NCBI GenBank assembly: GCA_046350235.1 | Contig: JAXMAT010000015.1 | Location: forward strand, 14,171-78,170 | Length of the DNA stretch: 64,000 bases | Source: Gemmataceae bacterium | GTDB lineage: Bacteria; Planctomycetota; Planctomycetia; Gemmatales; Gemmataceae | Direction of reading: 5' to 3' | In this document: one piece after another, positions 7,205-63,679 of the stretch | Numbering within the stretch: the first letter of the stretch is position 1 | Layout: each line of letters starts with the position of its first letter | Position numbers and translations under genes: made by a program | The notes under the pieces: model-generated | The model's input: only the letters and a program-made list of their open reading frames with translations | Told to the model about the DNA's origin: nothing | The model's database searches: none

Positions 7205-8525
7205 GTGAGGATCGAAATCCCCTGCGACTGCGGAGCACGCATTTCGGCATCGCCCAACCAAGCGGGAAACACCGTCGCCTGCCAGGCCTGCGGTGAATCG
7301 CGCCGTGTGCCGGCGATGGGTGTGTTGGAACCGCCGCGCGGCTCGGCGAATTCGACCTCCGTACCCGCAATGCGGCGTTTGGTTTCCGTTCCCGCGTTGG
7401 CGTCAGCATGCGTCCTTGGCGTAGTAGCCGCAATCGGCGTCTACGCATTTACTCGCCCAAGCGAACCCACGAAGACGGCGGCGAAGATCGTTGCGCGGCA
7501 GGCCGAAGCGCCAATCGTTCAACGCAATGAACCGCCTCCGGAACGGACAACGGAACCAAATCTGCCCGCAATCGATCCGACCCGAAGCGAACCGAATCGG
7601 CCGGAAACTCCCGTCATTGTTCCCGTCGAAGTGCCCGCCAAGCCGTTGATTCCGAAGACGGCCGCGGAACCGGAGGCGAAGAAGGTCATCCTGCCTGTCG
7701 TGCCGAAACCGGCTTTGCCGGCGATTCCTGCCCCCGCTGTGCAGCGGAATCGCAAGGTCGAGCAAGAGATCATCGTCACCCAAAAGCCGGCGTATCGCAT
7801 CCAGGGAAGCGTGGTGCGATCGCTGTTGCAATACCGCATCGTATCGGACCTCGAATTCATCGAAAAACAAGGCGAAGCGATGGCGTTGGAACAGACCGCG
7901 AAGGACGCCAAGATTGTGCAAGCCGATGACCTGACGCGCGGATTGCTGGCCGAATCCGTGAAGCAATTGAACGGCAAGAAGTTCAACTGGCGCATCGACG
8001 ACAACGGGCTCGCGACAAGAATCGTTGGCGACGGCAACAAGCTGCAAGTGCTGGCTCAGGGCGGTCTAGGCGGGGCCTCGCTGCAACTCGCTTCGTTGCT
8101 CGACGACGACACTGGCACGCGAACTCACTCAAATCGCCGCAATGAAGTTGCCCGCGAATCTCCAAAAAGGACAAACCTGGTCCCGTCCGCTCACGCATCA
8201 ATGGGGCCCGCTCGGAAGCTGGCGCGGGCAGGTGAATTACCGATGCGACGAGACGCTGAACGGCGTGCGACAAAGATCGTTTGCGAGGCAAATGGTCTAT
8301 CAGCCTCCCGCCGTCGCCGCGAACGGCCTCGGTTTCCGCGTCGTCGGCGCCGCCTTCCGCACGCCTCTCGCTGCAGGAATCATCTACTACGACGTGGCGA
8401 AGGGGCGTGTCAGAGGTGCAGAGGAAACCTTCCGCGTAGCGGGCGCCATGCAGATGAGTCTGCTGAGTCTGCAAACGCCCGTCGAGATCGAGGAAGAACA
8501 GCACTTCCGCATGACCATTCGGTGA
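7205..8525 (+). pseudogene. Zinc-ribbon / single-TM / Pro-rich protein interrupted by a frameshift near 8105-8115
   Basis: The 7205 frame reads sensibly up to '...LQLASLLDDD' and then turns into Arg-rich nonsense. The 8142 frame is open from 8070 and continues plausibly ('LARELTQIAAMKLPANLQKGQTW...EEEQHFRMTIR'). A 1-nt indel joins the two. Confidence 0.55.
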
Positions 8526-8560
8526 CGCGTCATGCACGCCGGCCTGATGGTTCACGTTGT

Positions 8561-9040
8561 CTAAGGCATCGGCTGACGTTGCGGCATCGGCGTCTTTTTC
8601 TGCGGCAGGAACTGACGTAGGATCGGCAGCTTGTCGAGGTCTTTCGGCAATGCTCCGCCGTAATTTTGGCCGCAAGTGGTGGCTCCCCTTTTCGGGAGGG
8701 CGACGGACTTCTCCGGGCTTTTCTCGACGGCAATGCGGTAGCGGTGCAGTTCCGTCGCATCTTTGTCGAACGCGAGTTTTACCTGAAACTCATGCGTGCC
8801 CACCTGCTCCGCATTGGGCGTCCATTGCAGCTGACCCTCGCGGCTGATCGTCATGCCGGTCGGGGCCTTCACCATCGTGAATGTGCCGCGCCGGCCCATG
8901 GCGAGGTCGAAGGCGAAACGCTGGCCGGCCTTGGCAGTCACCGTTAGCGTCGAACCAGGGGGCAGCGGGTTCGATATTTCCTGCTGGGCGAAGGCCAAAG
9001 ACGAGAGGGCGAAGCACATTCCAAGGATCGCGTAGCGCAT
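8561..9040 (-). CDS. Secreted Ig-like domain protein
   Basis: Start at internal ATG 9040 (MRYAILGMCFALSSLAFAQQ, signal peptide). One beta-sandwich-like domain ('GQLQWTPNAEQVGTHEFQVKLAFD'). Confidence 0.6.
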   Translation of the reverse strand: MRYAILGMCFALSSLAFAQQEISNPLPPGSTLTVTAKAGQRFAFDLAMGRRGTFTMVKAPTGMTISREGQLQWTPNAEQVGTHEFQVKLAFDKDATELHRYRIAVEKSPEKSVALPKRGATTCGQNYGGALPKDLDKLPILRQFLPQKKTPMPQRQPMP

Positions 9041-9059
9041 GGCATCCTCGCAGAGCGGG

Positions 9060-9515
9060 CTAGCGTTTGCGTTTCTTCTTGGGCGATTCTTCGGGGTACA
9101 CATCGGGCAATTCGTTGCGCTGAATGCCGACGGACGGTTCTTCGTCCGAGTCCTCGCCGTCTACCATGCCGTCGAGAGCATCCGCTCCCATCGTCCGCTC
9201 GTTGGCGTCGATGATCGGCGCCTCGCGCGGGCCGATGTGCACCTGATAGTGGCAGTTGGCGAAGCTCACCTTGTCGTTGGGAAGCAACGCGGCTCGGCGG
9301 ACGCGGGTGCCGTTGACGCGGGTGCCGTTGGTGCTGCCCAGATCTCGCAGCACAAGAAGGCCATCGGTTTTGACGAGGACGCAATGGGCTTTCGACACGC
9401 TCTTGTGGTCGAGGCGGAGGTCGCATTCCTCTTGGCGTCCGACGACGACCATGTCCTTGCCGACCTCGAACGGATCGCCTCCGTCGAGGGGGACCAGGGC
9501 CATGCGGAGGTTCAT
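9060..9515 (-). CDS. FHA domain protein
   Basis: 'VVVGRQEECDLRLDHKSVSKAHCVLVKTDGLLVLRDLGSTNGTRVNGTRV', with an acidic/basic tail. I prefer ATG 9515; the track's TTG start at 9572 is also possible. Confidence 0.8.
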   Translation of the reverse strand: MNLRMALVPLDGGDPFEVGKDMVVVGRQEECDLRLDHKSVSKAHCVLVKTDGLLVLRDLGSTNGTRVNGTRVRRAALLPNDKVSFANCHYQVHIGPREAPIIDANERTMGADALDGMVDGEDSDEEPSVGIQRNELPDVYPEESPKKKRKR

Positions 9516-13174: not shown

Positions 13175-13395
13175 CCCATCCCGGTTCCATTTTGCTCACG
13201 CATCGCGAACCTGATCCGGCCCGAAGGTTTGGTATCGAAATGAGTTGCGACTCCCCATGGTTCCATTTCGGCTCCGTTTGGGTCCCCGTCGCCGCGCGTC
13301 GAAATGTCTGAACCCACCCAACCGCGGTAGCGGCGTCTCACGGTATCCCACGGCCCAAGCCGTGGAATACTGACAACACCGACGAGACGCGCAGC

Positions 13396-13728
13396 ATGGG
13401 AATCCCGATCGGTCAGGTCGTCGGCGACGGAGCGATCTTGTTGTTCCTCGACAATCAGGCGGCGGATCAGCGGGCGCATCAGCGCGCGAAGCAGGACTTG
13501 GCGGCTAAGCTCGCGACCGAGATCCGGGTGGTGCCGCGTCCGGCTTGCGGGCATATCAGCAACACATGGTCGAGCTGGCGAGACAAAGTAGGCTCTTTTG
13601 GATTGGAGTTCTCGCTCTTCTCACTGGGCGCGTATGTGAATGTTCTCAAAGCCCATCCGATCCGCAGGCAATGGCTGCTCGGCTTGGGCATGGCCTCGTT
13701 ACTGCTGCGCGTCGCCACGATCGTCTAA
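13396..13728 (+). pseudogene. Degenerate copy A of a small zinc-ribbon, two-TM protein
   Basis: Nucleotide homology to 34326-34714 ('GCGAAGCAGGACTTGGCG..GTGGTGCCG.GTCCGGCTTGCGG..CAACACATG.TCGAG.TGGCGAGACA'). The conserved peptide pieces 'RAKQDLAAKLATEIRVVPRPACG', 'QHMVELARQSRLFWIGVLALLTG' and 'WLLGLGMASLLL' lie in two different frames. Confidence 0.4.
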
Positions 13729-14224
13729 CGGTTACTCGCCAACACACGCTTCGCCCCCAATTCGACCCACGTGGAAGGTCGGATGGCGCTCGGCAAAAAA
13801 GACGGGTTCATCCTCCGCATTCAAGATGCGGACGACGCGGATGGCCCCTTGCGATCGCAGGACGTGGAGGAGGGCTTCCGAGCCGATCGAAACAAGGACA
13901 CGTGCCGGTGCTGGGAAACGGAGACGCCACTCAACGAACGTACATAAGTCGATATGGCTGCATTTCTTCTGCCTCACTTCACATGAAATGCTGTTGCCGC
14001 TCATCCGTTGCCGCAGGGGCCATCCGTGATGAACCGCCGACGCCCGACGATTCTCACTGTCTTCCGCAAAGCGATGGAACCTGCTGGCAGCAAGTAGCCG
14101 ATCGCTCGACGCACCGTACGCGCACCTGGAGCCGCGCCTCCCGGCGGTTGCTTGCGATTCCTATAGTAAGCTCCACGCCGGACTGCGCCGGCGTCGCTCG
14201 CCGCTTGGAAAGGATTTTCCCGCC

Positions 14225-16429: not shown

Positions 16430-16491
16430 CGCGACTCTCGCAATAGTTTCTGATGCTGAGAGTCGGAATCGAGTGCGCGACGGGTGAAACC

Positions 16492-16860
16492 ATGCCGACA
16501 TTCAAAGAGGTGGTGGAAGGGATCGGACTCACGATCGACGGTGCCGGCGTCTTCGCGATCGTTCTCGGACTACTGTTTGCCGACCCGCTACGCTTTCGTC
16601 GGTTCGAAGAATGGTTGGAGTTACCGCCGGTTTCGCCAAGACCTCGGGCGCGGTATCCTGCTCGGACTCGAATTCCTGGTGGCGGCAGACATCATCCGAA
16701 CGGTGGCCGTGGTGCCGACGCTAGAGGGCGTTCTAGTCTTGGGCGTGATCGTGCTGATTCGGACTTTCCTGAGCATGGCCTTGCAGGTCGAGTTGGAAGG
16801 CAGATGGCCTTGGCAGCGCGAAAACGAAATGGAGCCAGCGCCGTCTCATTCCGCTGAGTC
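16492..16860 (+). pseudogene. DUF1622 membrane protein with a frameshift near 16590
   Basis: The N-terminus 'MPTFKEVVEGIGLTIDGAGVFAIVLGLLFA' lies in the 16453 frame. The conserved core 'YRRFRQDLGRGILLGLEFLVAADIIRTVAVVPTLEGVLVLGVIVLIRTFLSMALQVELEGRWPW' lies in the 16484 frame. The 3' end is uncertain because that frame runs on to 17203. Confidence 0.65.
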
Positions 16861-26209: not shown

Positions 26210-27568
26210 TCAAGCGAGAATTCCCTGGATGACCGAACCCGTGGAGAGCGGCACAGGGCGGTCGAGGGGGTCGCGGACCAGGGTGTGCGGGTCGATGCCC
26301 ATCAGGTGAAACATCGTAGCCGATAAATCTTCGGGGCGGACGGCGTTGGTCGAAGGATAGGCGCCACGCGTGTCGGAGGAACCGAAGACGAAGCCGCGTT
26401 TCACCCCGGCTCCGGCGAGCAACACCGTATAGCATTGCGGCCAATGGTCGCGGCCGGCCATGTTGTTGATCCGAGGCGATCGACCGAACTCACCGGCCCA
26501 TACGACCAAGGTCGTGTCCAGCAGGCCGCGGTGGTCGAGGTCTTCGATCAAGGTCGGCAGGGTCTGGTCGGTGATCGGCAGCAGGTAGTCGTTCATGATG
26601 GGATACATCGGGTTGTTGTCGAACCCGTGCGTGTCCCATCCCCCTTCGTTGCGACGCCCGCCGATCTGCGCCGCGAAGTAAACCGTGACGCACTTCACGC
26701 CCGTTTCGACCAACCGACGCGCGAGCAAGCAACCCTGGCCGTAGGTCGTTCGGCCGTAGCGATCGCGCGCGGCCGCCGGTTCGCGCGACAGGTCGAATGC
26801 CTGCCGAAAACGAGGCGACGCGAGCAGGCTCAGCGCCCCGCTGATAATAGGTTTCGATCCCGCGAGCACGCGGCGAAGGTTCCGCGACGGCGGCGGTCGC
26901 ATCGATCAGCCGCTGCACCTCACGGCGATCATGCAGACGCTGCACATTGAGGTTCGCGGGGAGGCTCAGTTCCGGCAGGCGGAAATCGGACGAGTTCGGA
27001 TCTTGGCTGATGAAAAACGGATCATGCGCGGGTCCGAGAAAACTCGCATGCTGGCCCGGCGTGATCGAACCATCGGCAATGGTGTGCGGATAGGAGACGA
27101 AACTCGCCACGCCATCGGGATCCGTCGAGAAGCGATCGATGACGGAACCGTAGGCGGGGTACAGCTCACGCGAATCGCGCAGACGTTGATCGTCGGTCGG
27201 CGGAGCCTGGCCGGTCAGGCTGTAGTAGCCTGCGGAATTGTGGTTCTTCATCTCATGCCGCATCGAGCGGATGAGACAGACCTTGTCCATCACCTTCGCC
27301 ATCCGCGGCAAGCGATCGCAGATCGGCGTTCCGACAGGGCGAACTCGCCATGGGCCGATAAATGCCGCGAATTTGGTCGGGCATATCGGGTTTCATGTCG
27401 AAGGTATCGACATGCGACGGGCCGCCGAACTGATGCAGGAAAATGATCGACTTGACGCGAGAGCCGCGCGCGGGCGATTCGCTAGCCGGCAACAGCGACG
27501 CGGCAGCGCCAGAGTCCCCCAATGCTGAGGAAGGCACGTCGATCCAGGCGATGCGTTAGCGAGGACAT
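26210..27568 (-). pseudogene. DUF1501 protein, decayed (at least 4 frameshifts)
   Basis: The family sequence has to be pieced together from all three frames. The pieces are the Tat leader 'MSSLTHRLDRRAFLSIGGL' (ATG 27568), 'KSIIFLHQFGGPSHVDTFDMKPDMPDQIRG', 'PVGTPICDRLPRMAKVMDKVCLIRSMRHEMKNHNSAGYY...LIDATAAV' and '...DRYGRTTYGQGCLLARRLVETGVKCVTVY..GWDTHG..GRDHWP...'. Confidence 0.8.
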
Positions 27569-34126: not shown

Positions 34127-34325
34127 CCGTCACCCTGATCGTCTGAATCCGAAATGTGAACAGATTTGTCCGACTTCAACTTCTATGGAAGTCTGCCGTA
34201 CTGATTAGGAATCGCTCGCGTTTCATTGAGGTAGGGCTGTTCATCGAAGCGAGTCAGCGTAGAAGCAACCCCCGAAAGTCTTAACGGGCACGGAACGTCG
34301 AATCGTTGACTGGGCGCGTTAACGT

Positions 34326-34714: not shown

Positions 34715-34778
34715 AAGTCGCTCGCGGAACCGAGGGCTCGATCGAAGATCCATGGACGTCAGCCGGAGAATCCGCGGT

Positions 34779-40880: not shown

Positions 40881-41287
40881 ACCTTCGTCTACGACGAGGG
40901 GGCGCATCGTTCGCCCCGCGGCTGCACGCCCGGCGGTTCGCCGCCGACGGGACGCCGCAGGCGACGAGTTCCTCGTCGCGGACCAGTACCTGGTGGACTC
41001 CGTGGGGAGGACGCAGCGGGTAACTTCGTCGTCGCCTGGGTGGGAGCCAGCCCGTACGCCGACATCCGCGCAGCGGCTCGATGGCGCGCCGCAGGGCGAT
41101 TTGATCCGCGCCCCCGGGCAGTGGGATTTGAGTCGGGAGCACCCGCTCGTCCCATGCCCCGCCGGGGACTTCGTCCTGACTTGGCAAGACAACGAAAGCC
41201 CGCAGGATGCCCAGCGATACGACGCGGCCGGCAACCCGGTGGGGAGCCGCCTCGACCTCGGGTACTTGATCGACCGGCCGGCCGCGG

Positions 41288-44200: not shown

Positions 44201-44452
44201 CGGAAGTACGGCGTCAACACGCTGATCGCGACGTTGAGCCCGTTGGTGTTCGACGACCCGAGTTTGCTTACCACTGGCCATGGTCGCTCACGGATGCTTA
44301 GAAGACACAGCTCAGCCAACTTCGCGCTTGCTCACGGATTCGTCTCAGGCGGCGGCAAATGGTTCCAGGACCGCAACAATCAATGGCACCTGATCAACCC
44401 GGATGGAACGCTCCGCAAGCCCGCAGCACGAATCAGTTGGTCGCTACGGTGA
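41288..44452 (+). CDS. Fragment of the giant locus: largest intact piece (1054 aa), cadherin-like and Ig-like domains plus the first C-terminal repeat
   Basis: 'NRQPTAIEFLTGGSIPEDSPAETVVGVLKAIDPDASDSHDFELLDDADGRFYLDG' is cadherin-like. 'LANDYDSDGGTLSVTSVTQPSHGSVQFVGGIVTYTPSAGYSGSDSFTYLLSDGQGG' is Ig-like. It ends in 'YGFVSGGGKWFLDRSGQWYSISANGELRKYGVNTLIATLSPLVFDDPSLL'. Confidence 0.7.
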   Translation: MPDGGFVLASIVGQSLYAVRFSANGTRLLTAVVDDQLQTFRYDPRPSVTRLADGNLWFAWEERGEDNQSYARARQYSPDLVPAGPAFDVAKFGYAPQIAAAGDTVAFVYQTVPGYDLYTQVLRRNDRPVAATVPPLALRQDGGTTTVDLTAYFSDRETAVAALTYSLVSVTGTNGLFSAVTVDASRRLVLTPAAGKTGSATVVVRAADANGAFAEATFHVTVLPATAPTVVAADGLATGLDFGRLNVGTSTLRLLFSRDVVGAGTAANYELRRAGSNGLLEADDALLPVSVAYDSAARTATLTFDFLVEDIYRLMIRDAIADQFGVALGGARTFDFVAVPDPFTNEPPVKELLTPGGYRFDVQRYGIGSGQLVHGTRDAFDGLNRLTINGTALDTYYGSESIRPHSWQSYTNYVSQLYAQRNVSVPLIGDVDFARTVDTFDVPGGWQPRDVAATYTSNLGAGQSIVSTSDGDAVLETTDTWFLTDDGDGTGSPAVLHLIGTPLGVRSSSVMVVGDNVTWTYSFTVASGAVLRLATFTIVAETRAAAVAAVEELVGPHGFRGAAAEGLAAGEVSSLANFRFPAPPPPNRQPTAIEFLTGGSIPEDSPAETVVGVLKAIDPDASDSHDFELLDDADGRFYLDGSTVLVADGADLSYVSGTAHVIRVRATDTEGLAFEQNLTVSVTHVNRLPVAALDRIAMVQDHLGKVVPVLANDYDSDGGTLSVTSVTQPSHGSVQFVGGIVTYTPSAGYSGSDSFTYLLSDGQGGSATGTVRVTVAAQPTASNQAAILSSTVDAAIQRFAAAGLSAAGIDYLRTKSFAFADLDGDALAKVLGNTILLDRDADGQLWFVDSTPLLDEEFGATSSAAKLLAQEGTAAAELLDLETVVLREMAKTLGVPPSMSPDLLASDITAGVRYLPKLDGSFQLKPNAAWSAVDIEQLSALRLQYGFVSGGGKWFLDRSGQWYSISANGELRKYGVNTLIATLSPLVFDDPSLLTTGHGRSRMLRRHSSANFALAHGFVSGGGKWFQDRNNQWHLINPDGTLRKPAARISWSLR

Positions 44453-45540
44453 GCGTGCTGGTCTACGACGATCCATCGCTGCTGCCGAACACCCGTCGCT
44501 CCTGAGCGATGCGGAAGAGCACGCTGGGCCAGCTTCGCGCGACGCATGAAGGCGATCTCAGGCGGCGGCAAGTGGTTCCTCGATCGCTCCAACCGAAGTG
44601 GCTGTTCATCGAAGCGGACGGCGAACTGCGGAAGTACGGAAGCAATACGCTCGTCGCTTCGCTTAGCCCTGGTATTCGATGATCCGTCGTTGCTTTCCAA
44701 AGTAGCCTGTCGCTCGGCGATGTGGGGAAGGCGCGCTTGGGCCAGCTTCGCGCGACGCATGGCTTCGTCTCCGGCGGCGGCAAATAGTTTCAGGACCGCA
44801 GCAGCGGTGGCACTTCATCTCCGCCGATGGGACGTTGCGGAAGTACGGCACGAATCAGCTTGTCGCGACATTGAGCCCGCTGGTCTTCGACGACCCGACG
44901 CTCTGTCGAGCAGCCAGTGTCGCTGTCGAACGCAGAGCAAGTCAACTCAGCCAACTGCGTGCTGCACACGGTTTCGTTTCGGGCGGCGGCAAATGGTTCC
45001 AGGACCGCAGCAACCAATGGCACTTCATCAACGTGGACGGCACGCTGCGGAAGTACGGCACGAATCAGCTTGTCGCCACGCTTGGCGTGCCTGGTCTTCG
45101 ACGATCCGACGCTTCTCAAGGCTCCCGTCTCGCTGACTGAAAACAAACAAAGCCGCGCTGAGCCAGTTGCGGCTTGCGCATGGCTTCGTCTCCGGCGGCG
45201 GCAAGTGGTTCCAGGACCGCGGCAACCAGTGGTACTTCATCTCCGCCGATGGAACGTTGCGGAAGTACGGCACGAATCAGCTTGTCGCGACCGTGAGCGT
45301 GCTTGCTTGACGATCCAACCTTGCTGACGTGCTCCTGTGACGCTGACGAATGTCGAGCAGACTCAACTAGCCCAGTTGCGGCTTGCGTATGGCTTCGTCT
45401 CGGGCGGCGGCTTAGTGGTTTCAGGACCGCAGCAACCAGTGGTACTTCATCTCCGCCGATAGGACGCTGCGGGAAGCTTGCAGCACGAACCAACTAGTCG
45501 CTACGCTAAGCGTGCTGGTCTTCGATGATAACGTTGCTTG
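44089..45540 (+). repeat. Tandem array of 7 copies of a ~209-213 bp coding repeat
   Basis: The conserved core GGCGGCGGCAA(A/G)TGGTT recurs at about 44135, 44348, 44561, 44773, 44982, 45194 and 45403. Consensus peptide: '(E)QLSQLRxAHGFVSGGGKWFQDRSNQWHFIxxDGTLRKYGTNQLVATLSPLVFDDPTLL'. Copies 2-7 carry indels and stops, for example TGG->TAG at 44785-44787. Confidence 0.85.
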
Positions 45541-45891
45541 CTGCTGCGTACCTCGGTTAATCAAGATGACGTGCTAGCATCCTGCTGGTGATCGAAGCCG
45601 AAAGCAGCGGCTGGAGCCCGGGCTTACCCCGAGGAGCTGCGACCGCTCGATCCCAGCAGCCGATGAAGTCGCGGGCAGCTCCCGGACGAGTACATTCGCC
45701 ACAGGGTCGATGGGCAATTGGGTTCAGGCGGGCCGTTGGTGATCGGCGGCGGCTGACCGGCTAGGCCCGTCGCTGGACACGTTTTGACCCGTTGCCCCCA
45801 AGCTCGAAATCGATTTCGGAATGTGAGTGTCCGATTTGACCGGGAGCTCCGGAGCGCGCAAGCGAAACACGCGTCTTCGCTCGCATCGGCT

Positions 45892-46275: not shown

Positions 46276-48749
46276 TCAAACGCGTCGGATGCGGCATGCG
46301 AAGCATTTGTAGGCTTGCTGGCCGGAGAGGTTGTCGAAGTAGCGGTCATTCGTCGATTCGTACATCGGCGCACCAAACTCTTAGCCCATTTGCTGCATCG
46401 GGCCGAAGGTGCTGGGGACGAATCGTATCTTGGCGGATGCCTTCCCAGAGGGCGGCGAAGTTTCTGGATGGATCCTTGCCGGGCTTTCGACGATGATTTC
46501 GTCCCCTTCGCGGATGTTGGCTTTCATCGCCGTCTGCGGGTGGACTTGGATCAGTTCCCGTTGAGTTGTTTCCCTGAGTAGGTCCATTGCGTCATCCCGG
46601 CGAAATGAACGACGCTCGGGCGTCCCGTCATGCCCATCAGCGGATACTCGGCGTGGACCGCACCGGTCGAGGCGCCGCCGATACGGGCGCGGGGTGTGGC
46701 GGCGCCGGGGTTGATCGGATTCGTCACCAACTCGTTCGCATGCTCGACCGTCGGATTGCGGCCGGTGACTTCAGGATGCGTGTAGTACGTCGGCAATGCA
46801 GCGTGCCCCGCGGTCGCAAGGCGTTTTTCGATGTCGGCGGTGAACACCTCGGATTTCCCGCTTGGTGTGAGGAACCGCTTCCCCGCGTGGCCCAGAGCGG
46901 CCGCCGCTTCGCGCCAACTCGGATGATCGAGATAAAGCGTGCTGACGCCGGCATGCTTTTCGGTGGGGCAAGGCCAACGCAGCGGCTCCGAACGACGCGA
47001 CATCCGGTCCTGCGTCATGCCCGCCATGCCGGGCGTGTTGGCGACGAAGGTCGCCCAGAGGTTGCGATAGTTTCGCCAGGCCGCGGGAAAGGCATCGGTC
47101 CAGGTCGCGGCTCCGCGCGTGCGGTCCAGCCTTCCAAGTGCATGAGCGAGGTCGATCCAGATTTCCCAGTCGGGCTTCGATTGTCCCACGCGAGGCACGG
47201 CCGCATTCTGCCAGCGGATGCCGCGATCGTCGCGCCGCATGTAGACGCCGTCCATCTCCAGCCCGCTGCACACCGGAAGAATGATGTCTGCGTAGTACGC
47301 ACTTTCCTCCATGAAGAGGCCGGTGTAGGCGTAGAACTCCAGAGCGCGATACGCTTGGCGGACGCGTGTCGTATTCGCGCTGCTCAGAAGCGGGTTGCCC
47401 ATCGTGACCAGCGCTCGCATGCGATAGGGGCGAGCATTCAGGATCGATTCGGCAAACCAATCCGGGCCGACGGGCAATGCCTGTCCCTTTTCCGGAACCT
47501 GAGCCGCGAGGCGTGGGAGATGCAAGTCGCCGGGCCAGGTGTTGTGCATGAAGTTGCACCCGCCGCCGGGCACGCCGATGTTGCCGGTGATGGCGGCGAG
47601 CATGGCGAGGGCGCGGTAGGTGTCGAAGGCGTTCATCTGATGCGAGATGCCGGCGTTGCAGAAGATGGCGGCGGGTTTCGCGCGAGCATACTCTTCCGCC
47701 AAAGTTTCGATCTGCCGAGCAGGCACATCGCACATGCGGGCGGCCCACGCGGGCGTGTAGGCGTTCTTTCGCAGATGCTCCGCGAGTTCGTCGAAACCGA
47801 CCACCCAATCGCGGACGAAAGCCGGGTCATGCAACTTGCGATCGATGATGTGGTAAAGCATGCCCAAGACGAGGGCGAGATCCGTGTGCGGTTTGGGGGC
47901 GATCCACTGATCCGCCTGCGCTCCGGTCGGCGTCCGCCGCGGGTCGATGACGACGAGCTTCGCCTTGGTGCGCGATCGGCATCGCAGAAGATGCGCGAAC
48001 GTCACCGGATGCGTCTCGGCCTGATTCGTTCCGAAGAAGAGGAAGTACCGGGCGCTGCCGAGGTCCTCGCGCCCCGTGGCAGGATCGACGCCATAGCCGT
48101 TCGTGAAATTGCCGAGTCCGAAAGTGGTCGCAAGCGCATTGCCGCCGGCGTCGTTGCACACGGGGCCGACATCCGTGTCGTTGGGGCTGCCGAGCAACGT
48201 GAACATGCGGTGGATCAGCGACCCTGTCCCGCGCGGCAGTCGGCCGGAGGTTCGGCTGACGATCGCCTTCGCATCGCCCGCCTCGCGCAGCTCCAACATT
48301 TTCCGCGCGATCCGTTCGAGGGCTTCATCCCATGTGATGGGTTCGAATCGGGACTGCGGATCTCCCTTGTCGCCGCCGATCCGCTTGAGGGGCCGGGTCA
48401 GGCGGAAGCGGTTGTAGACCAACTGCGGCATCATGCCCGCCTTGACGCAGAGTTCCCCCGCCTGCACCGGATCGTTCGGCTCGCCGCGTACATCAATAAC
48501 ACGGCCCGCGAAGATGTACCCGCAGACCGCAGAGGAATTGCAGAACTGACAGGCACTGGTGACGACGCGATCCGGCTGCAATGCGGCCGACTGCTGCGTG
48601 AAATCGATACGCGCCGATTCGGCGGCGGCGGGAGCCGGATCAGCGCCGTGACCGGTGCCGGGCATCATGCCGAGTACCGCCACGCTGCTTCCCAGAGCGA
48701 CTCCCTGAATGACATCGCGGCGATTCGGAGCGGAGGAAGTGGAGCTCAT
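46276..48749 (-). pseudogene. Tat-exported molybdopterin oxidoreductase (MopB superfamily) with a disrupted C-terminal domain
   Basis: The 739 aa ORF from ATG 48749 has the Tat motif 'NRRDVIQGVALGSSVAVLG' and the 4Fe-4S motif 'CQFCNSSAVCGY...C'. The molybdopterin-dinucleotide-binding tail continues only after a frameshift at ~46555 ('RELIQVHPQTAMKANIREGDEIIVES'). It then has an in-frame TAA (46381-46383) before '..EFGAPMYESTNDRYFDNLSGQQAYKCFACRIRRV*'. Confidence 0.7.
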
Positions 48750-49054
48750 ATCGACATACCGCCGAAGCAATGAGTAGGAGAGCCTCCACGTTCATGGAGG
48801 CACGACATCATGACATCTGGGCAACTGTTTGCGTAAGTTTCGAGTATTTCACAACATGCGTTCAGAATCAAGAAGATTGTGGCTCAGTTGACGGATTCCT
48901 AAGGAACAATTCAACTTCCGATCATTTGGTTTATGCGGCTTTCTATCGGATTTTACGTTTGAACAGAGCAAATCTCGCCGAATGGAGTTGGGAAAACACT
49001 CCGATATTCGAACAACACCGAACGTCGCCCGATGTTTACCGGAATGGAACTCCG

Positions 49055-50144: not shown

Positions 50145-50405
50145 TTACGTCAGGCCCCTAAGGGCGCATCCAGAATCGATTCGGCGACAATGGGGCCAAC
50201 CGGCAAGCCTGCCCCGGGCCAGGTGTTGTGCATGAAGTTGCACCCGCCGCCGGGCGGCCGGTGATGGAGGCGAACATGGCGAGGGCCGGGAAGGAGCCGG
50301 CCGGAGATTTGGGCGCAGGAGGCTTCCGGAACACCGAGCGAACAAACCGCCGCCGATCACTGCTCCTTTGAGAAGTTTCCTCCGATCCGTCGAAAACGAA
50401 TCCAT
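50145..50405 (-). pseudogene. Remnant of a second molybdopterin oxidoreductase paralog
   Basis: A Tat-like leader 'MDSFSTDRRKLLKGAVIGGGLFA' is joined to sequence homologous to 47430-47610 of the neighbouring gene. This includes the identical run CCAGGTGTTGTGCATGAAGTTGCACCCGCCGCCGGGC. Internal deletions are present. Confidence 0.55.
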
Positions 50406-50474
50406 GGCAGACGGTCCCTTGCTCTGCTGGAAATTTGCATCGATGAGGATGGAGAAGTGCAGTCAGCGAGAGAG

Positions 50475-53394: not shown

Positions 53395-54952
53395 TTAGTG
53401 GTTGAGGCGAAATTCCGCACTGTTGAGCAGGGTCCAGAAAATGTCGGCCAGCCGTTCGGCTTCGCGGTCAGTGCCGCCGAGACGAACGAACGCTTCGAGC
53501 CGGGCTGCCTCGTCCGCGGACGGTTTGCGGGTCAGCGTGGCGAGATAAAGCGTCCCGATACGCTCCGCGAGCGAGAGGCCGGGCGTCTTCGTCGCGGCGA
53601 TCATCGTAGGCGAGTTTTCCGGGTCCGTCGCCCAGCCGACGAACCGTCCATTCTGCAGCGTGAGCGCCTGCTGGACCGAAGTTTCCGGTTCATCCAGCGG
53701 GCTGGTCAGCGCGAAGCGAGCGAGGAACTGCCGACGAAATCCGCCCTTATCCTGGTCGTCGCGATAGCCGGTGGCGAGGGCGAGACTATCGAACCATTGC
53801 TCGCCGGAGAGGGCCTTGACCGCCATGCGAGCCGGCAGCTTCGTCTCATCCTGGCTTGGGTGCGTGCGGCCGCTGGAGCGTTGATACGCTCCGGTCCCGG
53901 CGAGGGGCGCGGATGAGAAATCGCAGATCGAAGTCCGCGGCAATCAACGTCTCGGCGAGGTAATCGAGCAACTCGGGATGCGACGGCGGATTGTCGTCGC
54001 GGAAATCGTCCGCGGGGCTCACGATGCCTCGGCCGAACAGGCGTTCCCAGATGCGATTCGCCGTCGCTTTCGCGAAGAAGGGATTCTTCGGCGACGTCAT
54101 CCACTCCGCTGAACAATGCGCGCGGCGGAGTCTTGTCGCCAGGCGGGTGTTGCTTTGTCGAGGAAGATGGCCGAGCGCGATTTCTTCGAGCCTGGATCGA
54201 CGATGTCGCGCCGCGAAACGGTTTCGCTCAGCGGCGCGAAGATCCGATTGCCCCCCTGCCGATCGATGCTCGCGAAGAATGCAGCCTGGTTCCAGAATTG
54301 TTCCTGCGTCCACGCGGCGAAAGGATGATCATGGCACTGGGCGCATTCGAGGCGAACGCCCAGAAACGATCGCGTGACCGCGGCGGCGAGATTTTCCGGC
54401 TTCGCATCCTTTGCCGCGTAAACGCCAGCGCGGGTTGGGGCGCGCGGTGATCGCGCAACACGGCGACAGCCGACGACGATTGCGTGGGCAGCGGAACCGA
54501 AAGCAACTCGCGACCCAACGATGCGATCGTAACCGACGCCCGAGCGAGCCGCTCGGTCAGCCACGCTTCGAATCCTTGTCGCAGAATTCCCGCCTGCGGA
54601 TCGCTGGTCGTCTCCGGCACAAGCTCCGCACGCCAGACCTGCGCGAAATGTCCCGCGAAACGCGGCTCACGCAACAGGTTACCAATGAGGCGAGTGCGCT
54701 CGTCGGGCGAACGATCTTCGAGAAACGCATGCCTTCCGAATGCGCGGGATGCGGCCCGCGAGATCGAGGTAGGGCGCGGGCGCAGAAACTCCGCATCGTC
54801 CGCCTTCGGGGCCGGAGTGATTTTCTCCGCCTTCCATATATGTTCCAGTGCCGCATCGATCCGCTTGGGCGACGACACTGCACGTCGGGCGGCTCGGCCG
54901 AGGCGCGAGCCGCATGCGACAGGATCAGGAGGACGACTGCAATGTTCCGCAT
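53395..54952 (-). pseudogene. DUF1549/DUF1553 protein, decayed and shortened (several frameshifts)
   Basis: Consecutive pieces sit in different frames. In order: the signal peptide 'MRNIAVVLLILSHAARASA' (ATG 54952), 'IDAALEHIWKAEKITPAPKADDAEFLR', 'LREPRFAGHFAQVWRAELV', 'CAQCHDHPFAAWTQEQFWNQAAFFA', 'FFAKATANRIWERLFGRGIVSPADDFRDDNPPSHPELLDYLA' and '...FWTLLNSAEFRLNH*'. Confidence 0.75.
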
Positions 54953-54960: not shown

Positions 54961-55952
54961 TCAGGCGATGAAGGCGAATTGGTCGGCGGCGGGGCCGAGG
55001 CGAATCTGTTCCGCCTGCTCGGCGAGACCGCAATCTGCTCGCCGCGTCGATAGGTCATGCCGTCGTCGTCCGTGATTTCCTCATACGGACCTTTGTAGAC
55101 GACCTTCACGAATGGCCACGCTCCGCCGGACGGTTTCCACGCGACCATCTGCATCTCGTGCAGCTCGACGCCGCCCACGCTGAAGCAATGGATGTCGCCC
55201 AGCTTGTCGCAGAAGACGCCCGCGAACCCGGCCGCGCAATAAGAGAAGCGGTTCCGTCTCGACAGGGATGCGTTGCACGATCGACGCCATACCCGGCAGC
55301 TTCGGCGTGCCGGTGGCTTGTCGCCCACGAGGGCGTGTACCGCGAGTCGCCCGCCTGGTTGCAGCACGCGCAACACTTCGCGGAGCAACTCCGGCATCCG
55401 TGTCGCGGCGATCGTGGCATTGAACGAACCTTCGAGCCGCACTTCGTCGAGAGCCCCGTCCTGAACTCGAGGCGATCCGGCCAGGCGTCGGCGATCTTGT
55501 GCTCCCATGCATGCGCCGGTGGCGTCGGGGCGGCTGTCGAGGAGCATCGTCGAAGCCGGAGTGTTCGATGTCTTCGTGGAGCGTGTAGAGTCCGACATCA
55601 CCTGGTCGGGATCGGTGACCCAAAACTTGGTTTGCCGCGAGTAGCAGCACTCGACGCCTTCCTGGCGTTGGGTCGCGATCCCCGCTTCTTCCAGGCGGCG
55701 CTGCATGGCGACGAGCGTCTCGGTATCGGGGACGCGCACGCCGACATGGTTGAGGGCCCCTCCCGGTTGCCGCGGCGCGGGATAGAGGACGAGGACCAGC
55801 GGCGGAGATGCGATCTCAAATTTCGCGACTTCCGGATGATCGCGCTTCGGTTCGATGCCGAAGAGCGTGCGATAGAAGCGAACTGCCCGCGCAATGTCGG
55901 ACGTATGCAGGCCGATGTGAAACGCGGTAGTCGCAGTCGCTGTGCTCGTCAT
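54961..55952 (-). pseudogene. ArsI/CadI-type VOC domain fused to a methyltransferase-like module, copy 1 (at least 4 frameshifts)
   Basis: 'FHIGLHTSDIARAVRFYRTLFGIEP..NHVGVRV..GVECCYSRQTKFWVTDPD' carries the vicinal Cys-Cys. Later pieces sit in other frames: 'GDVGLYTLHEDIEHSGF', 'AWEHKI', 'ALDEVRLEGSFNA..VLQPGGRLAVHALVGD', 'TPKLPGMASIV', 'AAGFAGVFCDKL..HEMQMVAWKP..VVYKGPYEE' and '..AEQAEQIRLGPAADQFAFIA*'. Confidence 0.7.
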
Positions 55953-56025
55953 GTCGTGTCTCCTGGCTGCGACCAACAAGAGTCGCGCACGCAGTAAGCG
56001 GATGCTCTTAACGCCTCGCAACCGC

Positions 56026-57084
56026 TTACTGCGTGCGCGGCTCCTCCGCACGCGGCTTCGCTGGCCTGAAGAACAGGAACTGCTCGGCGGATGGTCCATG
56101 GCGGAGTTGGCGCCATACGCTCGCGGGAACCGTCGTCCGCTCGCCTCGGCGGAAAACGCGGGCCCCTTCGATCCACACCTGGGCGAAGGGACCTTTGTAG
56201 AGCACCATGCGATCCGCTTCGCCCGCGGCATCCGGCTGTTTCCACGCGGCGAACTTCATTTCGCGCAGGCCGATGGTTTCGTGAGTGAACCACGGCTTCT
56301 CCGTGAGCTTCGTCGCATGCAAGTTGACGAAACCCGCCTTCGCAAGCTGTTCATAGACGACGATCCGCGCGGGGACGAACGACACCATCGAGGCGAGGCC
56401 GGGCAGCTTCGGTTGCGTCGTGAGCGGAGCGTCGCTGATGAGACCGTGTACCGTCACCTTGCCCGCCGGCTTGAGGACGCGCTTCGCCTCGGCGAGTACG
56501 GCATCGATGTGAGCCGCATCGCTTCCGGCGTTGAACGTGCCCGTCAGCCACACCTCATCGAGCGACGCATCGGCATACGGCGCCGGGATCGCGTCGGCGT
56601 TGACTAGCGAATGTTCCCAGATGCGAGGCGCTGCGATCGGGGTCGTCGCCTGCGCGACCACGCCTTCGAGCGAACGGCGGACGACGACGGGATCGACTTC
56701 CTCTTCGACCCAGTAGACTTCCCAGAAATTGCCGTCCGGATCGCGGGTCCAGATTTTGTCTTTGCGGGCGAAGCTGCACACGGTGCCGTTCTACCTTTCG
56801 GTGCAGATGCCGGCCGCGTTCAGTCGTTCGCCGAAGGCGGTGACCGCATCACGGCTGCCGACGCGAAACCCGAGATGGCTGAGCGATCCACCCTGGCTCG
56901 GCGGACGCGGGGTGAGCGAAAACACGACCGGCGGATCTTCCAACTCGAACTTCGCATAGTCCGCATGGCATTTCGCCGGATCGATGCCGAACAACGTGCG
57001 GTAGTACGCAATCGCCATCTCCAGACTGGAGACGTTGAGCGAAAGGTGGAACTTCGAGACTTCCGGTTCCGCGGGAACGTTCAT
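56026..57084 (-). pseudogene. ArsI/CadI-type VOC domain fused to a methyltransferase-like module, copy 2 (single in-frame TAG)
   Basis: The 130 aa and 251 aa ORFs share one frame and are separated only by TAG 56791-56793: '..AAGICTER*NGTVCSFARKDKIWTRDPDGNFWEVYW..'. The stop aligns with Gln in copy 1 ('IATQRQEGVECCY'). Confidence 0.75.
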
Positions 57085-57094
57085 GGCATTCTCC

Positions 57095-58381
57095 TCACGA
57101 AACGGTTGACTCGGGAGCGGACACGTCCGGGGCATGCGGCTCGCGCACGAACCAACACAACACCGCCAAGACGACTGCCGCAAGGCCGCATACGAAGAAG
57201 AACGGATCGGGCGAGTCGGTTAGCAGCCGCGATTGTACCAGGAGCCATGGGCCGACCGCGGAAAAGAGGACGGAGATCACCTGCACCGTCCCCTGGATCG
57301 ATCCCATGTGTTTCTTGCCGAACGCATGGCGGAAGATGGCGAAGAAGACGACGGTGATGACGCCCCCCGAGATGCCCATCGCCGCGCCGTAAGCGACCGC
57401 ACCCGCTTGCGTCAGGATCTAGGGGAAACCCGCCAACGAGGTCGCGAGGACCGCCATGCCGATGCCGAGCAGCTTGCTCATGGACCATCGCTGCGAAAGC
57501 CAGCCCGCGAAGATGTTGGCAGGCAGGCCGGTGAAGACGAGCACGCCCATCACCAGGATGAACACGCTTCGGCTCAGGCCGTGATCGAGCAGCAGCGTTT
57601 CGTTGAACAGCGTCACCGCGGACCAAACGAGGTTGAACAGACCGACGCCAAACGCCCAGACCCAGAAAGCGGGAGTGGCGAGCGCCTGACCGAGCGTCGC
57701 ATCCGCGACGAGACGATCCGGGTCGCGTTCGTCGGCAATGTCGGCCGATTCCTTCGCATCGTTGCGAGAGAGGAGCCACGCGAGCGGCGCCATCCCGGCG
57801 ATGAGAAGCCAGCCCAGGCCGCTCCAAGCATGTCGCCATCCCATCTCGCCGACGGCATACCCGAGGCCGAGCGTGCTCGCCATGAAGCCGATCGAGAGGA
57901 GGATGGTGAAGACGCCCATGGCGATGCCTACGCGTCGCGAGAACGACTTGCCGACAAGGGCGATACTGGCGACGGAAAGCGATCCCTGACCCAAGCCGCG
58001 GACGAGGATGAGCGCAGCCAGAAAGACGACGGCGGAAGGTGCGAATCCCATCGCCAGCACGGCGAGCCCGAGGCCGAGAGAGATCGCACCGGTCACGAAA
58101 CGTGGGCCGATCCGGTCGAGCAGCCAACCGACCGGAACGACCATCGTCGAGCCGATGAGAATCGCCAATAAGTTGTAGACGGCGAAATCCGATTCGGAGA
58201 TGCCGAGACCGGCATCATCGATCACCGGCTTGGTGATCATCCCGAGCCCATGCGTCCGCCCCGGCAAGGTCGCCGTCATCGCCGTCGCGGCAATGACGAC
58301 GTTGAGCCAGCGAAACACCGCCGGCAATGCCGGAGCGTTTGAAGCCTTCCAGACCGGGCTCGTCTGAATTGCGGTAGACAT
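57095..58381 (-). pseudogene. MFS transporter with an in-frame TAG
   Basis: The 320 aa ORF ends '..LATSLAGFP*' at TAG 57419-57421. The same frame continues 'ILTQAGAVAYGAAMGISGGVITVVFFAIF...', the remaining C-terminal TM helices, down to 57095. Confidence 0.75.
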
Positions 58382-61945: not shown

Positions 61946-62151
61946 CTGCCCAGATGTTATACTGTTGCGGCAATGGAGGCAACCAAAAAGCGGCGGCTCA
62001 CTGTTCTGCTGGCTTCCAAACGCGGAAAGAACAATCGCGACTGGTTCGGCAATTCTCTTGGGAAGCAGCCCACAGCCGCTCTCGGTTTGGTTGCGGCTTT
62101 TCAAATTCAGCTTCGAGTACCGTAGACCGTAGACACGAGGGCAGATAGCGC

Positions 62152-62397
62152 TCAGCTTGTGGCTGACCGAACCATTGCCGTGATAGCGGCTCGGATGGGT
62201 TCAGGGAGCGCTGGCCACAAATCAGCGATCATAGCCAAACGAGGGTCGGAGAACACGCGGTTGCGCTGTGCGCCGGATTCTGCGCCGCTTGGCCCCAAAC
62301 TTTCGCTGTTTCCCGAGGAATGATGGGGTGGTTCGATTCCCATAGGCTCTACACCAAGCTTGCTCAGCACGAAAGAAAGACAGCCTCGAAGCACCAT
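62152..62397 (-). CDS. Doubtful small ORF; only the C-terminal 'DPRLAMIADLWPALPEPIRAAITAMVRSATS' looks protein-like
   Basis: The N-terminal part overlaps the tRNA-like fragment ('GIEPP' is a T-loop read in reverse). This may be a truncated island gene. Confidence 0.25.
   Translation of the reverse strand: MVLRGCLSFVLSKLGVEPMGIEPPHHSSGNSESLGPSGAESGAQRNRVFSDPRLAMIADLWPALPEPIRAAITAMVRSATS
62323..62356 (+). other. tRNA 3'-end-like fragment (T-arm plus acceptor 3' strand), candidate att site
   Basis: The sequence is ATGGG-GTGG-TTCGATT-CCCAT-AGGCTCT-ACACCA. The T-loop TTCGATT and the CCCAT/ATGGG stem are present, but a 4-nt interruption splits them. No matching acceptor 5' strand (AGAGCCT), D arm or anticodon arm occurs upstream. 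Confidence 0.3.
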
Positions 62398-62427
62398 GCT
62401 CCGAGGGTTGTCTTTGGTTAACGGCGG

Positions 62428-63679
62428 CTACCCCATCTTCGCCGCCACTTCGGCCGCCCGCCGCAGATCTATGCCCGCGTAATGCAGCGTCATGTTCAGC
62501 GTTCGATGCCCCAGCGTTGCCCGTGCTGCCTCGGCTCCTTGCTCCCGCTCGATAAGCAACGCCGCGGTGTGGCGGAGTTGGTGAGGGTGCTAGTGAGCCG
62601 CACCAGCCTTCTTGCACGCACGGGCAATCGCGCGGGCGTAAGCGGTGGGACCGAATTTCGCCTTAGGCTTTCGTACCGCGCCCCGCTTGCTTCGGTAGAG
62701 TTGCGAGGGCTGCACCGGCGTCTTGCGGGCGGCCCGCTTTGCCGCTTTGATCTCGGCGTCCTGGCGAGCCGGGCTAAAGACGTATTCCTGTGCCGTAACC
62801 GCATCGAGGTGGCGAAGGAGGGCAGCCTGAGCCTTGGGCCCGACAGCGATGGCTCGCACATGGCCGTGGTGGGCAGTCTTGTGGCTGGAGGGCCGGTAGA
62901 TCCAAATCTCTTGCGTTCGCTCGATGTCGCACGGCCGCATGGCACATACCTCTCCGGGCCTGGCTCCCGTTCGCAGTTGAAAGAGGACCATGTCGTGGAT
63001 ATGCGGGGGCAGTTCTTCGAGCGTCTTCTGCACCACATTTGGATCGACGGGCAGAACCGGTTCGGCTTCCCTCGCCCCCCGGCCTCGCTTTATCGGTGCG
63101 ACCGATTGCAGTTCGACGAACTGCATGGGGGGGCGAGCTTCTCGCTGACCGCCCATTTGAACAGAGACCGAATTCGAGAGACATGCTGGTTCACGAGTCG
63201 GCGGCACCAACCGATCGCTTTTTGGTTCTTGGTTCGTGCGTCGCGTTCCTTCGCGGTAAGCCACGATCCAGTAACCATGGCGCGTTGGACTGCTTTCAAT
63301 TCGAGTGGGCCGAAGCTGCTCGCAAGCGTTCCGCCGTAAAGGCGGAGAAACGGAGCGAGAGCAACTTTGAAGTTCCGCTGTTCCGTGGTCGGTGAACCGT
63401 CGTGATCAACGTAATCCGCTTCGAGCTTCTTTTCCGTGAACGAGACGACCAGTTCGTTGACCGTAACATCCGCGCCGCCACCGGGTATGGGCAGCTTGCC
63501 GCCGTTGGTACGGAGCAGGGCAAGCAGACGCTCATACTCGGCGGGCTTTCCGAGGAGTTGAAGAGGCCGGGAAGGAGAACCTCTTTTGAACGGCCAAGGT
63601 GGTCCGAAACCACGATTCTGGCTCGTCCGGTTTGCTTGTGGCGAAGATAGGTAGGGACGGACTTGCGCGGACGCGGCAT
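62428..63679 (-). pseudogene. Tyrosine recombinase / phage-type integrase, decayed (at least 2 frameshifts plus an in-frame TAG)
   Basis: The pieces are 'MPRPRKSVPTYLRHKQTGRARIV' (ATG 63679), 'LGKPAEYERLLALLRTNGG...FKWAVSEKL', and 'LFQLRTGARPGEVCAMR...HKTAHHGHVRAIAVGP...ACKKAGAAH*HPHQLRHTAALLIEREQGAEAARATLGHRTLNMTLHYAGID'. The TAG at 62590-62592 occupies the Trp of the usual 'HWHPHQLRH' box. The R..HxxR..Y catalytic pattern is present. Confidence 0.8.

Follow-up and report, generated by a model that had tools for sequence, protein, structure and literature searches.

Frameshift patches in a Gemmataceae-like contig fit local consensus errors better than gene decay

Results

The window analysed here is a 64,000-nt stretch of an 87-kb contig from a Gemmataceae-like planctomycete. 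About 59 lesions were located across 7.2–63.7 kb, a region that an initial annotation had read as clustered gene decay, listing six in-frame stops and a series of frameshifted genes next to long intact ones. All six stops were found at their coordinates and on the expected strand, the five genes named as uninterrupted were intact, and every gene on the frameshift list that was tested proved to be frameshifted relative to single-frame homologues. Several of the disrupted genes are dispersed along the window:

7205..8525, + strand: zinc-ribbon/TM protein, with a single net +1 complex lesion at ~8117
13312..13947, + strand: zinc-ribbon paralogue A, whose frame switches twice and which has TAA 13726 at a Tyr of paralogue C (three-frame translations and a Viterbi segment containing an in-frame stop)
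16453..16857, + strand: DUF1622, with one frameshift near 16585; PF07784 positions 20-78 and the Met-led N-terminus lie in different frames
26210..27568, − strand: DUF1501, frameshifted twice (~27339 and ~26837) and free of stops; the Pfam match extends over three frames (guided alignment)
34300..35020, + strand: zinc-ribbon paralogue B, whose frame switches twice (frame translations), in surroundings without coding signal
34947..35261, − strand: remnant of an AraC-type N-terminal domain (DUF6597), with three in-frame stops (PF20240, 27.8 bits, HMM 3-101/103)
62222..63710, − strand: tyrosine integrase, split over three frames, with TAG 62590 in the H-x-HPHQLRH box

The frame-joined product of 7205–8525 was 99–100% covered by homologues P0241 (84% identity) and P0242. 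With the sister locus L081 as guide there was only one shift, at 8117, where the DNA alignment has GACGGCTGGCGCGA in the relatives and GACACTGGCACGCGA in the window. Codons past this site differed from the sister at 9/11/46% of positions 1/2/3, indicating that the downstream codons were constrained until very recently. Once corrected, the DUF1501 protein matched its family over HMM 2-390/390 with 310.6 bits. The AraC/DUF6597 remnant has lost its HTH domain and its codon bias (GC3 0.64), and is a genuine old pseudogene. As for the integrase, its disruption by both frame changes and a stop was confirmed: the middle ORF (63093-63710) matches residues ~45–187 of 360–430-aa homologues, a third frame holds the N-terminal 'MPRPRKSVPTYLRHK', and the catalytic domain, with its Phage_integrase match, spans TAG 62590, where the original codon would have been Trp. 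No tRNA was found near the integrase. TAA 13726 in zinc-ribbon paralogue A was absent from the initial list of stops.

The largest disrupted gene encodes a giant exoprotein:

35524..45580, + strand: giant exoprotein with a DUF5122 propeller, PKD/Big_9/cadherin domains and seven 71-aa C-terminal repeats
37567-39285, + strand: exoprotein patch with at least 11 frame switches
40880-41290, + strand: exoprotein patch with ~4 frame switches
44400-45580, + strand: exoprotein patch with ~13 small indels and TAG 44785
35821-37566, 39286-40880 and 41290-44400, + strand: clean stretches of the exoprotein

The three patches had been placed at 37.56-39.36, 40.88-41.29 and 44.27-45.54 kb; our limits are 37.57-39.29, 40.88-41.29 and 44.4-45.58 kb. 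Shredded stretches thus alternate with 1.7–3.1 kb of perfect ORF, and the largest clean stretch (3125 bp) is longer than expected for a gene with 29 lesions (P=0.00085). TGA 35818 divides an in-frame N-terminal ORF (35524-35820, '...ERLEDRVVLAAS...') from the ORF of the DUF5122 propeller (35821-37626), and TAG 44785 takes the place of W in the GKWF of copy 4 of the seven 213-bp repeats. In the shredded repeat copies GC3 was 0.75-0.85, and second-position differences were not commoner than in intact copies.

Downstream and convergent to the exoprotein gene lies a molybdopterin oxidoreductase gene, for which homologues P0002 and P0003 served as alignment guides:

46282..48770, − strand: molybdopterin oxidoreductase
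50165..50410, − strand: second Mo-oxidoreductase fragment, retaining the GGGCNFMHNTWPG motif (tblastn to homologue residues 357-455, 31-35% identity)

All of ~120 Mo-oxidoreductase homologues are single-frame proteins of 820–840 aa. Within 275 bp, the tail of the window gene carries four frameshift indels (46556, 46479, 46466 and 46423), one stop (TAA 46381, opposite a Glu of 80%-identical homologues) and a 12-bp deletion. The corrected tail is nevertheless 80% identical to P0002 (72/90), the same as the body of the protein in the guided alignment. The initial annotation was right about the stop in the tail and overlooked, in the apparently intact ORF, a compensated pair of shifts at 48536 (−1) and 48507 (−2) that garbles the CxxCxxxC motif; these are lesions at which the ORF nonetheless stays open. 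The two groups of lesions are separated by 1.95 kb of clean sequence. Correction raised the PF04879 score from 28.1 to 52.5 bits and recovered PF01568. The truncated protein as encoded in the window forms a singleton cluster and was found in no independent assembly; exact look-ups gave no further contig, and the nearest relatives belong to other species. The 250-bp fragment at 50165..50410 is a genuine remnant of a gene most of which has been deleted; relaxed alignment over the rest of that region gave nothing credible.

A further run of four genes is affected between 53 and 58 kb:

53395..54950, − strand: DUF1549/DUF1553, with eight frameshifts (54885, 54776, 54732, 54548, 54513, 54419, 54113 and 53905) and no stops
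54990..55960, − strand: VOC (glyoxalase)-methyltransferase fusion copy 2, frameshifted at six sites (55604, 55563, 55477, 55313, 55263 and 55025; guided by the tandem paralogue and Pfam)
56026..57087, − strand: VOC-methyltransferase fusion copy 1, with TAG 56791 as its sole lesion
57095..58381, − strand: MFS transporter, with TAG 57419 as its sole lesion

The frameshifts reported for a VOC fusion belong to copy 2; copy 1, with TAG 56791 opposite a Gln of its tandem paralogue, has none. The first 100 codons of copy 2 are clean, and its patch runs on into the DUF1549/1553 gene, whose last 500 bp are again clean. The DUF1549/1553 Pfam match was split in the raw frames and restored on correction, using orthologues of ~520 aa with 63% identity as guides. 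Within this patch the identity of the window to the orthologue was 59.8% against ~66% expected, a modest and non-significant excess of amino-acid changes, with invariant columns changed at 19/141 versus 7/86. The substitution-to-indel ratio may here reach ~3:1, as in Acidobacterium capsulatum. When TAG 57419 was read through, the MFS_1 match reached HMM 25-347/347 and scored 131.4 instead of 86.6 bits; the frame is kept over the 107 codons past the stop, whose GC3 is 0.81.

The lesions clustered more than expected by chance, as had been claimed (36 of 57 one-kb bins empty versus 20 expected; VMR 3.86; P<5e-5), and the argument that uniform sequencing error cannot produce such clustering holds. 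Non-uniform consensus error was left out of consideration in the initial annotation. The accompanying assumption that lesions cluster by gene, as relaxed selection would make them do, failed: they cluster by position, in patches of 0.3–2.3 kb that start and stop within genes and cross gene boundaries. The patch at 44.4-46.56 kb covers the 3' ends of two convergent genes, and that at 53.9-55.6 kb runs from the middle of VOC fusion 2 into the DUF1549/1553 gene. Decay would spread lesions over a whole gene and be bounded by it, which is not the case in the exoprotein, the Mo-oxidoreductase or the 53.9-55.6 kb patch; the arrangement found, set by position and independent of gene function and limits, is the one expected of consensus error.

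Within the patches we counted ~47 indels versus two stops, nearly all indels being of 1–2 nt, although several events were multi-base (−2, −4, −12) or complex, which real mutations can also be. For most organisms, 1.8–11.9% of spontaneous mutations are indels, and the bacterium with the highest share reaches 26% (PMC8717266). With 3.1% of substitutions creating a stop and at least seven substitutions per indel (PMC8717266), decay should give a stop-to-indel ratio of at least ~0.2:1, compared with the ~2:47 observed. The GC-to-AT signature of the stops, offered earlier as evidence of decay, carries no weight, because 66% of stop-creating single-base changes in this sequence are GC-to-AT whatever their source. 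Indels showed no homopolymer bias (the longest run near 21 sites averaged 2.62 versus a background of 2.57) and no link to high GC (patch GC 0.613 versus 0.627 in clean sequence); the association with homopolymers or extreme GC typical of nanopore, 454 or Illumina-dropout errors was therefore not seen.

As in decay, the frames are broken relative to intact homologues and Pfam matches are split across frames, with single-frame homologues for the Mo-oxidoreductase, DUF1549/1553 and the 7205-8525 product. Frame-corrected proteins recovered full-length Pfam domains. Among the corrected frames, the codon log-likelihood ratio (LLR) per codon was weakest in the DUF1549/1553 patch, at 0.10, and reached 0.18-0.21 in VOC fusion 2, DUF1501 and the Mo-oxidoreductase tail; intact genes scored 0.25-0.29 and the AraC remnant −0.27. 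Dominance of 1–2 nt indels, with the coding signal intact after frame correction, is the pattern expected of consensus error. The several-fold more substitutions, and the eroded codon bias and conserved residues, of a decaying gene were absent from the patches, borderline in DUF1549/1553 and evident only in the AraC remnant. The indel excess and largely preserved codon bias of the patches are the opposite of neutral decay.

Discussion

Indels dominate the lesions of this window, which fall in patches without regard to gene limits. We infer a technical origin, in sequencing or assembly. Under neutral decay each indel ought to be accompanied by several substitutions. Local consensus error is accordingly the likeliest source of the multi-frameshift patches, a reading that we hold to be more probable than not. 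The claim of gene decay would then stand for the AraC remnant, the Mo-oxidoreductase fragment and the isolated stops, and give way in the patches, which better fit non-uniform consensus error.

The window would accordingly contain two kinds of lesion, consensus errors and a minority of real pseudogenes. The first would comprise the exoprotein patches, both ends of the Mo-oxidoreductase, DUF1549/1553, VOC fusion 2 and DUF1501, and probably the 8117 lesion and DUF1622. The reads behind these kilobase patches may have been too sparse or too noisy, for instance in unpolished long-read sequence, in a filled gap or where strain-variable accessory DNA was covered at low depth. The putative error rate is about one 1–2 nt indel per 100–150 bp, and the genes beneath the patches would be intact and under selection. 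The second kind would include the AraC/DUF6597 remnant, the Mo-enzyme fragment, the truncated zinc-ribbon copies and possibly the integrase. Stops 35818, 56791 and 57419 are probably real pseudogenisation as well, because they lie in stretches without any indel, where error would need an implausible substitution-only process.

Gene-breaking frameshifts do arise in long-read assemblies (PMC12007338). Our patches share with the indel errors of long-read and hybrid assemblies that the Kastor tool addresses (PMC12007338) broken genes with intact homologues, indels of 1–2 nt and a coding signal restored by frame correction; they differ in being confined to 0.3–2.3 kb rather than contig-wide and in having no tie to homopolymers, and we infer that they belong to this type.

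Alternatively, all lesions could be real, as the initial annotation held, in an accessory, non-syntenic region decaying under relaxed selection. Inactivation of the genes at different times would then have left old remnants, genes with many frameshifts and single nonsense mutations of recent date. We consider this unlikely, though it is the strongest competitor. Compared with the sole sister locus found, the part rich in lesions is accessory, which is compatible with relaxed selection, and it has no close sister orthologues: its best database relatives are 60% and 80% identical, whereas the larger syntenic genes reach 91-99%. The stops and lost codon bias of the AraC remnant, gene fragments with large deletions, isolated nonsense codons in indel-free stretches, some multi-base deletions and the slight amino-acid excess in the DUF1549/1553 patch would also follow. 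Decay of everything is, however, at odds with the kilobases of perfect ORF between patches in the exoprotein and Mo-oxidoreductase, with patches that span gene boundaries, with the scarcity of stops, with the largely kept codon bias and homologue identity, and with indels that do not sit at repeats or homopolymers. Moreover, a 56-kb stretch with ~30% of its genes broken would be extreme for a free-living planctomycete. Bacterial pseudogenes and reductive decay are exemplified by Mycobacterium leprae and recently host-restricted symbionts. Nonsense codons at conserved positions, truncated remnants and an inactivated integrase are common to such genomes and the window, and this class suits the single-nonsense genes as well as the AraC/DUF6597 remnant and the Mo-enzyme fragment. 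There, unlike for most lesions here, damage affects whole genes, with substitutions and loss of codon bias, and the organism here looks like a large-genome, free-living planctomycete.

It is very improbable that the indel patches are real and reflect an indel-specific, localised mutational process, nearly free of substitutions, on the accessory DNA of a free-living Gemmataceae. Very slight, too, is the chance of localised indel mutagenesis, for instance repeated error-prone break repair or translesion synthesis on kilobase tracts causing showers of indels without substitutions. It would account for patchy, indel-only, context-independent lesions and for the close pairs or complex events at 48536/48507, 46479/46466 and 8117, but each indel would need separate fixation, and the same pattern is routine for poor consensus sequence. 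We know of no bacterial process that fixes ~1% indels per site in a tract and leaves the neighbouring kilobases untouched.

That the interruptions are decoded, by TAG/TGA reassignment, readthrough or programmed ribosomal frameshifting, has a negligible chance: although four of the six stops are TAG, and in-frame stops and frame changes in genes with clear homologues resemble recoding, 54% of random stop-creating single-base changes at this codon usage yield TAG, DUF2200 ends at HMM 111/111 followed by TAG 17373, the intact DUF1549/1553 gene at 27742-29949 also ends in TAG, and the window genes carry 2–8 bidirectional, non-conserved shifts where homologues are single-frame with no shift. TAG reassignment was excluded because TAG, a working terminator here, ends intact genes, and programmed frameshifting because homologues have no single conserved shift site.

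Were the patches real, a planctomycete with a large genome would have lost genes in an unusual burst. If they are artefacts, about a dozen genes would be misannotated as pseudogenes or bogus split ORFs, and genome-wide pseudogene counts for this organism would come out too high, as would any estimate of its genome decay. Such cases can be flagged without reads by the ratio of indels to stops or substitutions and by a codon signal that persists after frame correction; examples would be the 667-aa chance ORF at 54228-56231 and the 732-aa 'truncated' Mo-oxidoreductase.

Stops and frameshifts in the window

The initial annotation had read the lesions in the window, that is, in-frame stops or frameshifts that break a gene relative to its single-frame homologues, as clustered gene decay. 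All six in-frame stops that it reported were confirmed in position and strand, each inside recognisable coding sequence:

TGA 35818, giant exoprotein gene (35524..45580, +), between an in-frame leader ORF and the DUF5122 propeller ORF
TAG 44785, exoprotein, in one of the seven 213-bp repeats, at the site where GKWF has its Trp
TAA 46381, molybdopterin (Mo-) oxidoreductase gene (46282..48770, -), opposite Glu in 80%-identical homologues
TAG 56791, VOC-methyltransferase fusion (56026..57087, -), opposite Gln in the tandem paralogue
TAG 57419, MFS transporter; readthrough carries the MFS_1 match to the model end (86.6 to 131.4 bits)
TAG 62590, inside the integrase catalytic domain

A further stop, TAA 13726, had been overlooked. 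The GC-to-AT direction of the changes, previously taken as a sign of decay, is uninformative, being expected for 66% of stop-creating changes whatever their source. By sequence reading, a Dcm-like CCWGG context was present among the TAGs at 57419 only, and a PDB search with the MFS protein gave no match.

Frameshifts were located with a purpose-written frameshift-aware protein-to-DNA aligner guided by the best available homologues; the resulting lesion coordinates are good to about ±10 nt, and counts in the exoprotein patches are approximate. The five genes called intact are so. Guided alignment, Pfam matches and codon usage bore out the disruption of the following genes:

7205-8525, 1 shift, at 8117
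13312-13947 (+) and 34300-35020 (+), zinc-ribbon paralogues, 2 shifts each
DUF1622 gene, 1 shift
DUF1501 gene, 2 shifts
DUF1549/1553 gene, 8 shifts
54990-55960 (-), VOC-methyltransferase fusion (VOC fusion 2), 6 shifts
Mo-oxidoreductase tail, 4 shifts and a 12-bp deletion
62222-63710 (-), integrase, split across three frames
AraC-type remnant (DUF6597), three stops

The lesion at 8117 is complex, with GACACTGGCACGCGA in the window versus GACGGCTGGCGCGA in relatives. Two further DUF1549/1553 shifts, at 53847 and 53821 in a paralogue-guided alignment, were spurious and disappeared with true orthologues as guides. The exoprotein patches were supported in three ways, by Pfam matches in three frames, by an HMM of the protein's own propeller blades and by codon-usage Viterbi segmentation. 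We also found an overlooked compensated -1/-2 pair at 48536/48507 (-), inside the open, 'intact' Mo-oxidoreductase ORF, which garbles the Fe-S cysteine motif from CxxCxxxC to CxxCx5C; its correction raised the PF04879 (Fe4S4 domain) score from 28.1 to 52.5 bits. Comparison of the HSP70-like gene with DnaK structures revealed no hidden garbled segments.

Lesions cluster by position

In agreement with the earlier claim, the lesions (~59 in 56 kb) are clustered beyond chance, with a variance/mean ratio of 3.86 and 36 of 57 one-kb bins empty versus 20 expected (P<5e-5). The unit of clustering, however, is not the gene but the position. In the exoprotein, shredded stretches (37.57-39.29, 40.88-41.29 and 44.4-45.58 kb) alternate with perfect ORF of 1.7, 1.6 and 3.1 kb, and if the gene's 29 lesions were spread uniformly along it, a clean stretch this large would have P=0.00085. 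Both ends of the Mo-oxidoreductase gene are lesioned around a clean body of 1.95 kb. The patch at 53.9-55.6 kb begins after the first 100 codons of VOC fusion 2 and stops 500 bp before the next gene's stop, and the one at 44.4-46.56 kb extends over the 3' ends of a convergent gene pair. Such a sub-genic pattern cannot arise from selection on gene function; either mutation rate or sequence quality must vary by position.

The patches are rich in indels and largely retain their coding signal

We consider, with moderate confidence, that patchy consensus error over intact genes accounts best for the multi-frameshift 'decay'. A few ordinary pseudogenes and remnants are real. The main rival, genuine decay of all the genes, is less likely, although several observations speak for it.

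The patches hold about 47 indels, mostly of 1-2 nt, versus two stops. The share of spontaneous indels among mutations is 1.8-11.9% for most organisms and reaches 26% in the most extreme of the bacteria studied (PMC8717266). Given this rarity, a gene that has decayed neutrally to 8-15 indels/kb should also be heavily substituted, contain many stops and have lost its codon bias. At this codon usage a random substitution creates a stop in only ~3.1% of cases; even at that rate, neutral decay should give a stop:indel ratio of at least ~0.2:1, and the observed ratio of 0.04:1 argues against genuine decay.

In the Mo-oxidoreductase tail, four frameshift indels, one stop and the 12-bp deletion fall within 275 bp. 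Once the frame is corrected, the tail agrees with the closest homologues at 72/90 residues (80%), the value of the clean body; ~66% would be expected under a 10% neutral substitution load. Shredded exoprotein repeat copies keep a GC3 of 0.75-0.85 and a GC2 of 0.40-0.47, and their second-position differences are no higher than those of intact copies. Codon bias is largely retained in corrected frames, with log-likelihood ratios (LLR) per codon of 0.18-0.21 in VOC fusion 2, DUF1501 and the Mo-oxidoreductase tail and of 0.10 in the DUF1549/1553 patch, where the guides are least similar; for reference, intact genes score 0.25-0.29 and the AraC remnant -0.27. Frame-corrected proteins regained full-length Pfam domains. 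Downstream of the frameshift at 8117, the window differs from the sister species at 9/11/46% of codon positions 1/2/3, which indicates purifying selection until essentially now. The DUF1549/1553 patch showed a modest, non-significant excess of change.

On the side of genuine decay, the indel sites tested showed neither homopolymer enrichment nor a GC association and some events are multi-base or complex, so that the commonest platform-specific error modes are not evident. The isolated nonsense codons 35818, 56791 and 57419, which lie in long indel-free stretches, are probably real and recent, since as errors they would imply around a hundred substitution errors and zero indel errors in clean sequence.

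True remnants in the same window also favour decay, and to this extent the earlier reading stands. The DUF6597 remnant contains three stops and has lost its codon bias. A 250-bp fragment of a second Mo-oxidoreductase at 50165-50410 (-) shares the GGGCNFMHNTWPG motif exactly with the neighbouring gene; when the 50-51 kb region was aligned with relaxed penalties the result was overfitted, and only this fragment is credible. The zinc-ribbon copy at 23468-23722 (-) is truncated to its C-terminal half. None of the three paralogues of this small zinc-ribbon-plus-transmembrane protein is intact. At ~50.5 kb, a Tat-like leader ('MDSFSTDRRKLLKGAVIGGGL') lies in another frame upstream of the Mo-oxidoreductase fragment, beside an intact ArsR-type regulator.

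TAG reassignment was rejected because TAG is a working terminator in the window (its share of the stops, 4/6, matches the 54% expected by chance), and programmed frameshifting is excluded because the homologues are single-frame and the genes here shift several times each, in both directions. Neither consensus error nor genuine decay involves novel biology.

Genomic setting and additional features

The window (GC 59-68%) encodes families that are hallmarks of planctomycetes, namely DUF1501, DUF1549/DUF1553 and DUF1559 with an N-terminal methylation motif, and its genes have their nearest relatives in Gemmataceae MAGs. The sole syntenic relative found, a sister-species metagenome contig (JGI Ga0590114_0000151, 288,564 bp), matches window 3-13174 at 78-86% nucleotide identity, with glgP 98.7% identical at the amino acid level; this span holds one lesion. 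Synteny ends at 13.2 kb, where the lesion-rich part starts. Top matches lacked synteny in a GTDB genome scan with the Mo-oxidoreductase (76% identical) and in a metagenome scan with the HSP70-like gene (73% identical), as did the contig of P0003, a Mo-oxidoreductase homologue used as alignment guide. The Mo-oxidoreductase as called (732 aa) forms a singleton cluster, on a contig of 87,146 bp, and neither exact look-ups of three window proteins nor the metagenome scan yielded a second, independent copy of this organism. Since lesion-bearing genes have only distant best database relatives and synteny is lost, the lesion-rich part is accessory, which is compatible with relaxed selection, as genuine decay would have it, and fits equally well with strain-variable DNA being less deeply covered in a mixed sample.

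At 9579-9623 (-), the annotated N-terminus of the sister's FHA protein aligns to window sequence with a TGA and a TAG. Neither was counted as a lesion, as the sister start call is probably over-extended, a more distant homologue being short. No codon-usage signal was seen on either strand in 22594-23481, where GC reaches its minimum for the window (0.56), or in 33301-35718. The integrase has atypical codon usage; with no tRNA or other RNA gene near it within the window, no attachment site can be named.

The exoprotein C-terminus (44099-45584, +) carries seven tandem 213-bp (71-aa) repeats with the core 'GFVSGGGKWFQDR...DGTLRKYGTNQLVATLSPLVFDDP' and ~77% identity between copies; a Pfam scan of two copies found no family covering them. 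A 667-aa ORF at 54228-56231 (-) arises by chance where GC-rich sequence stays open out of frame through VOC fusion 2 and the N-terminus of DUF1549, a bogus protein that gene callers would report. The unusual glyoxalase/VOC-methyltransferase fusion gene itself occurs as a tandem duplicate (54990-57087, -) whose copies are ~42% identical.
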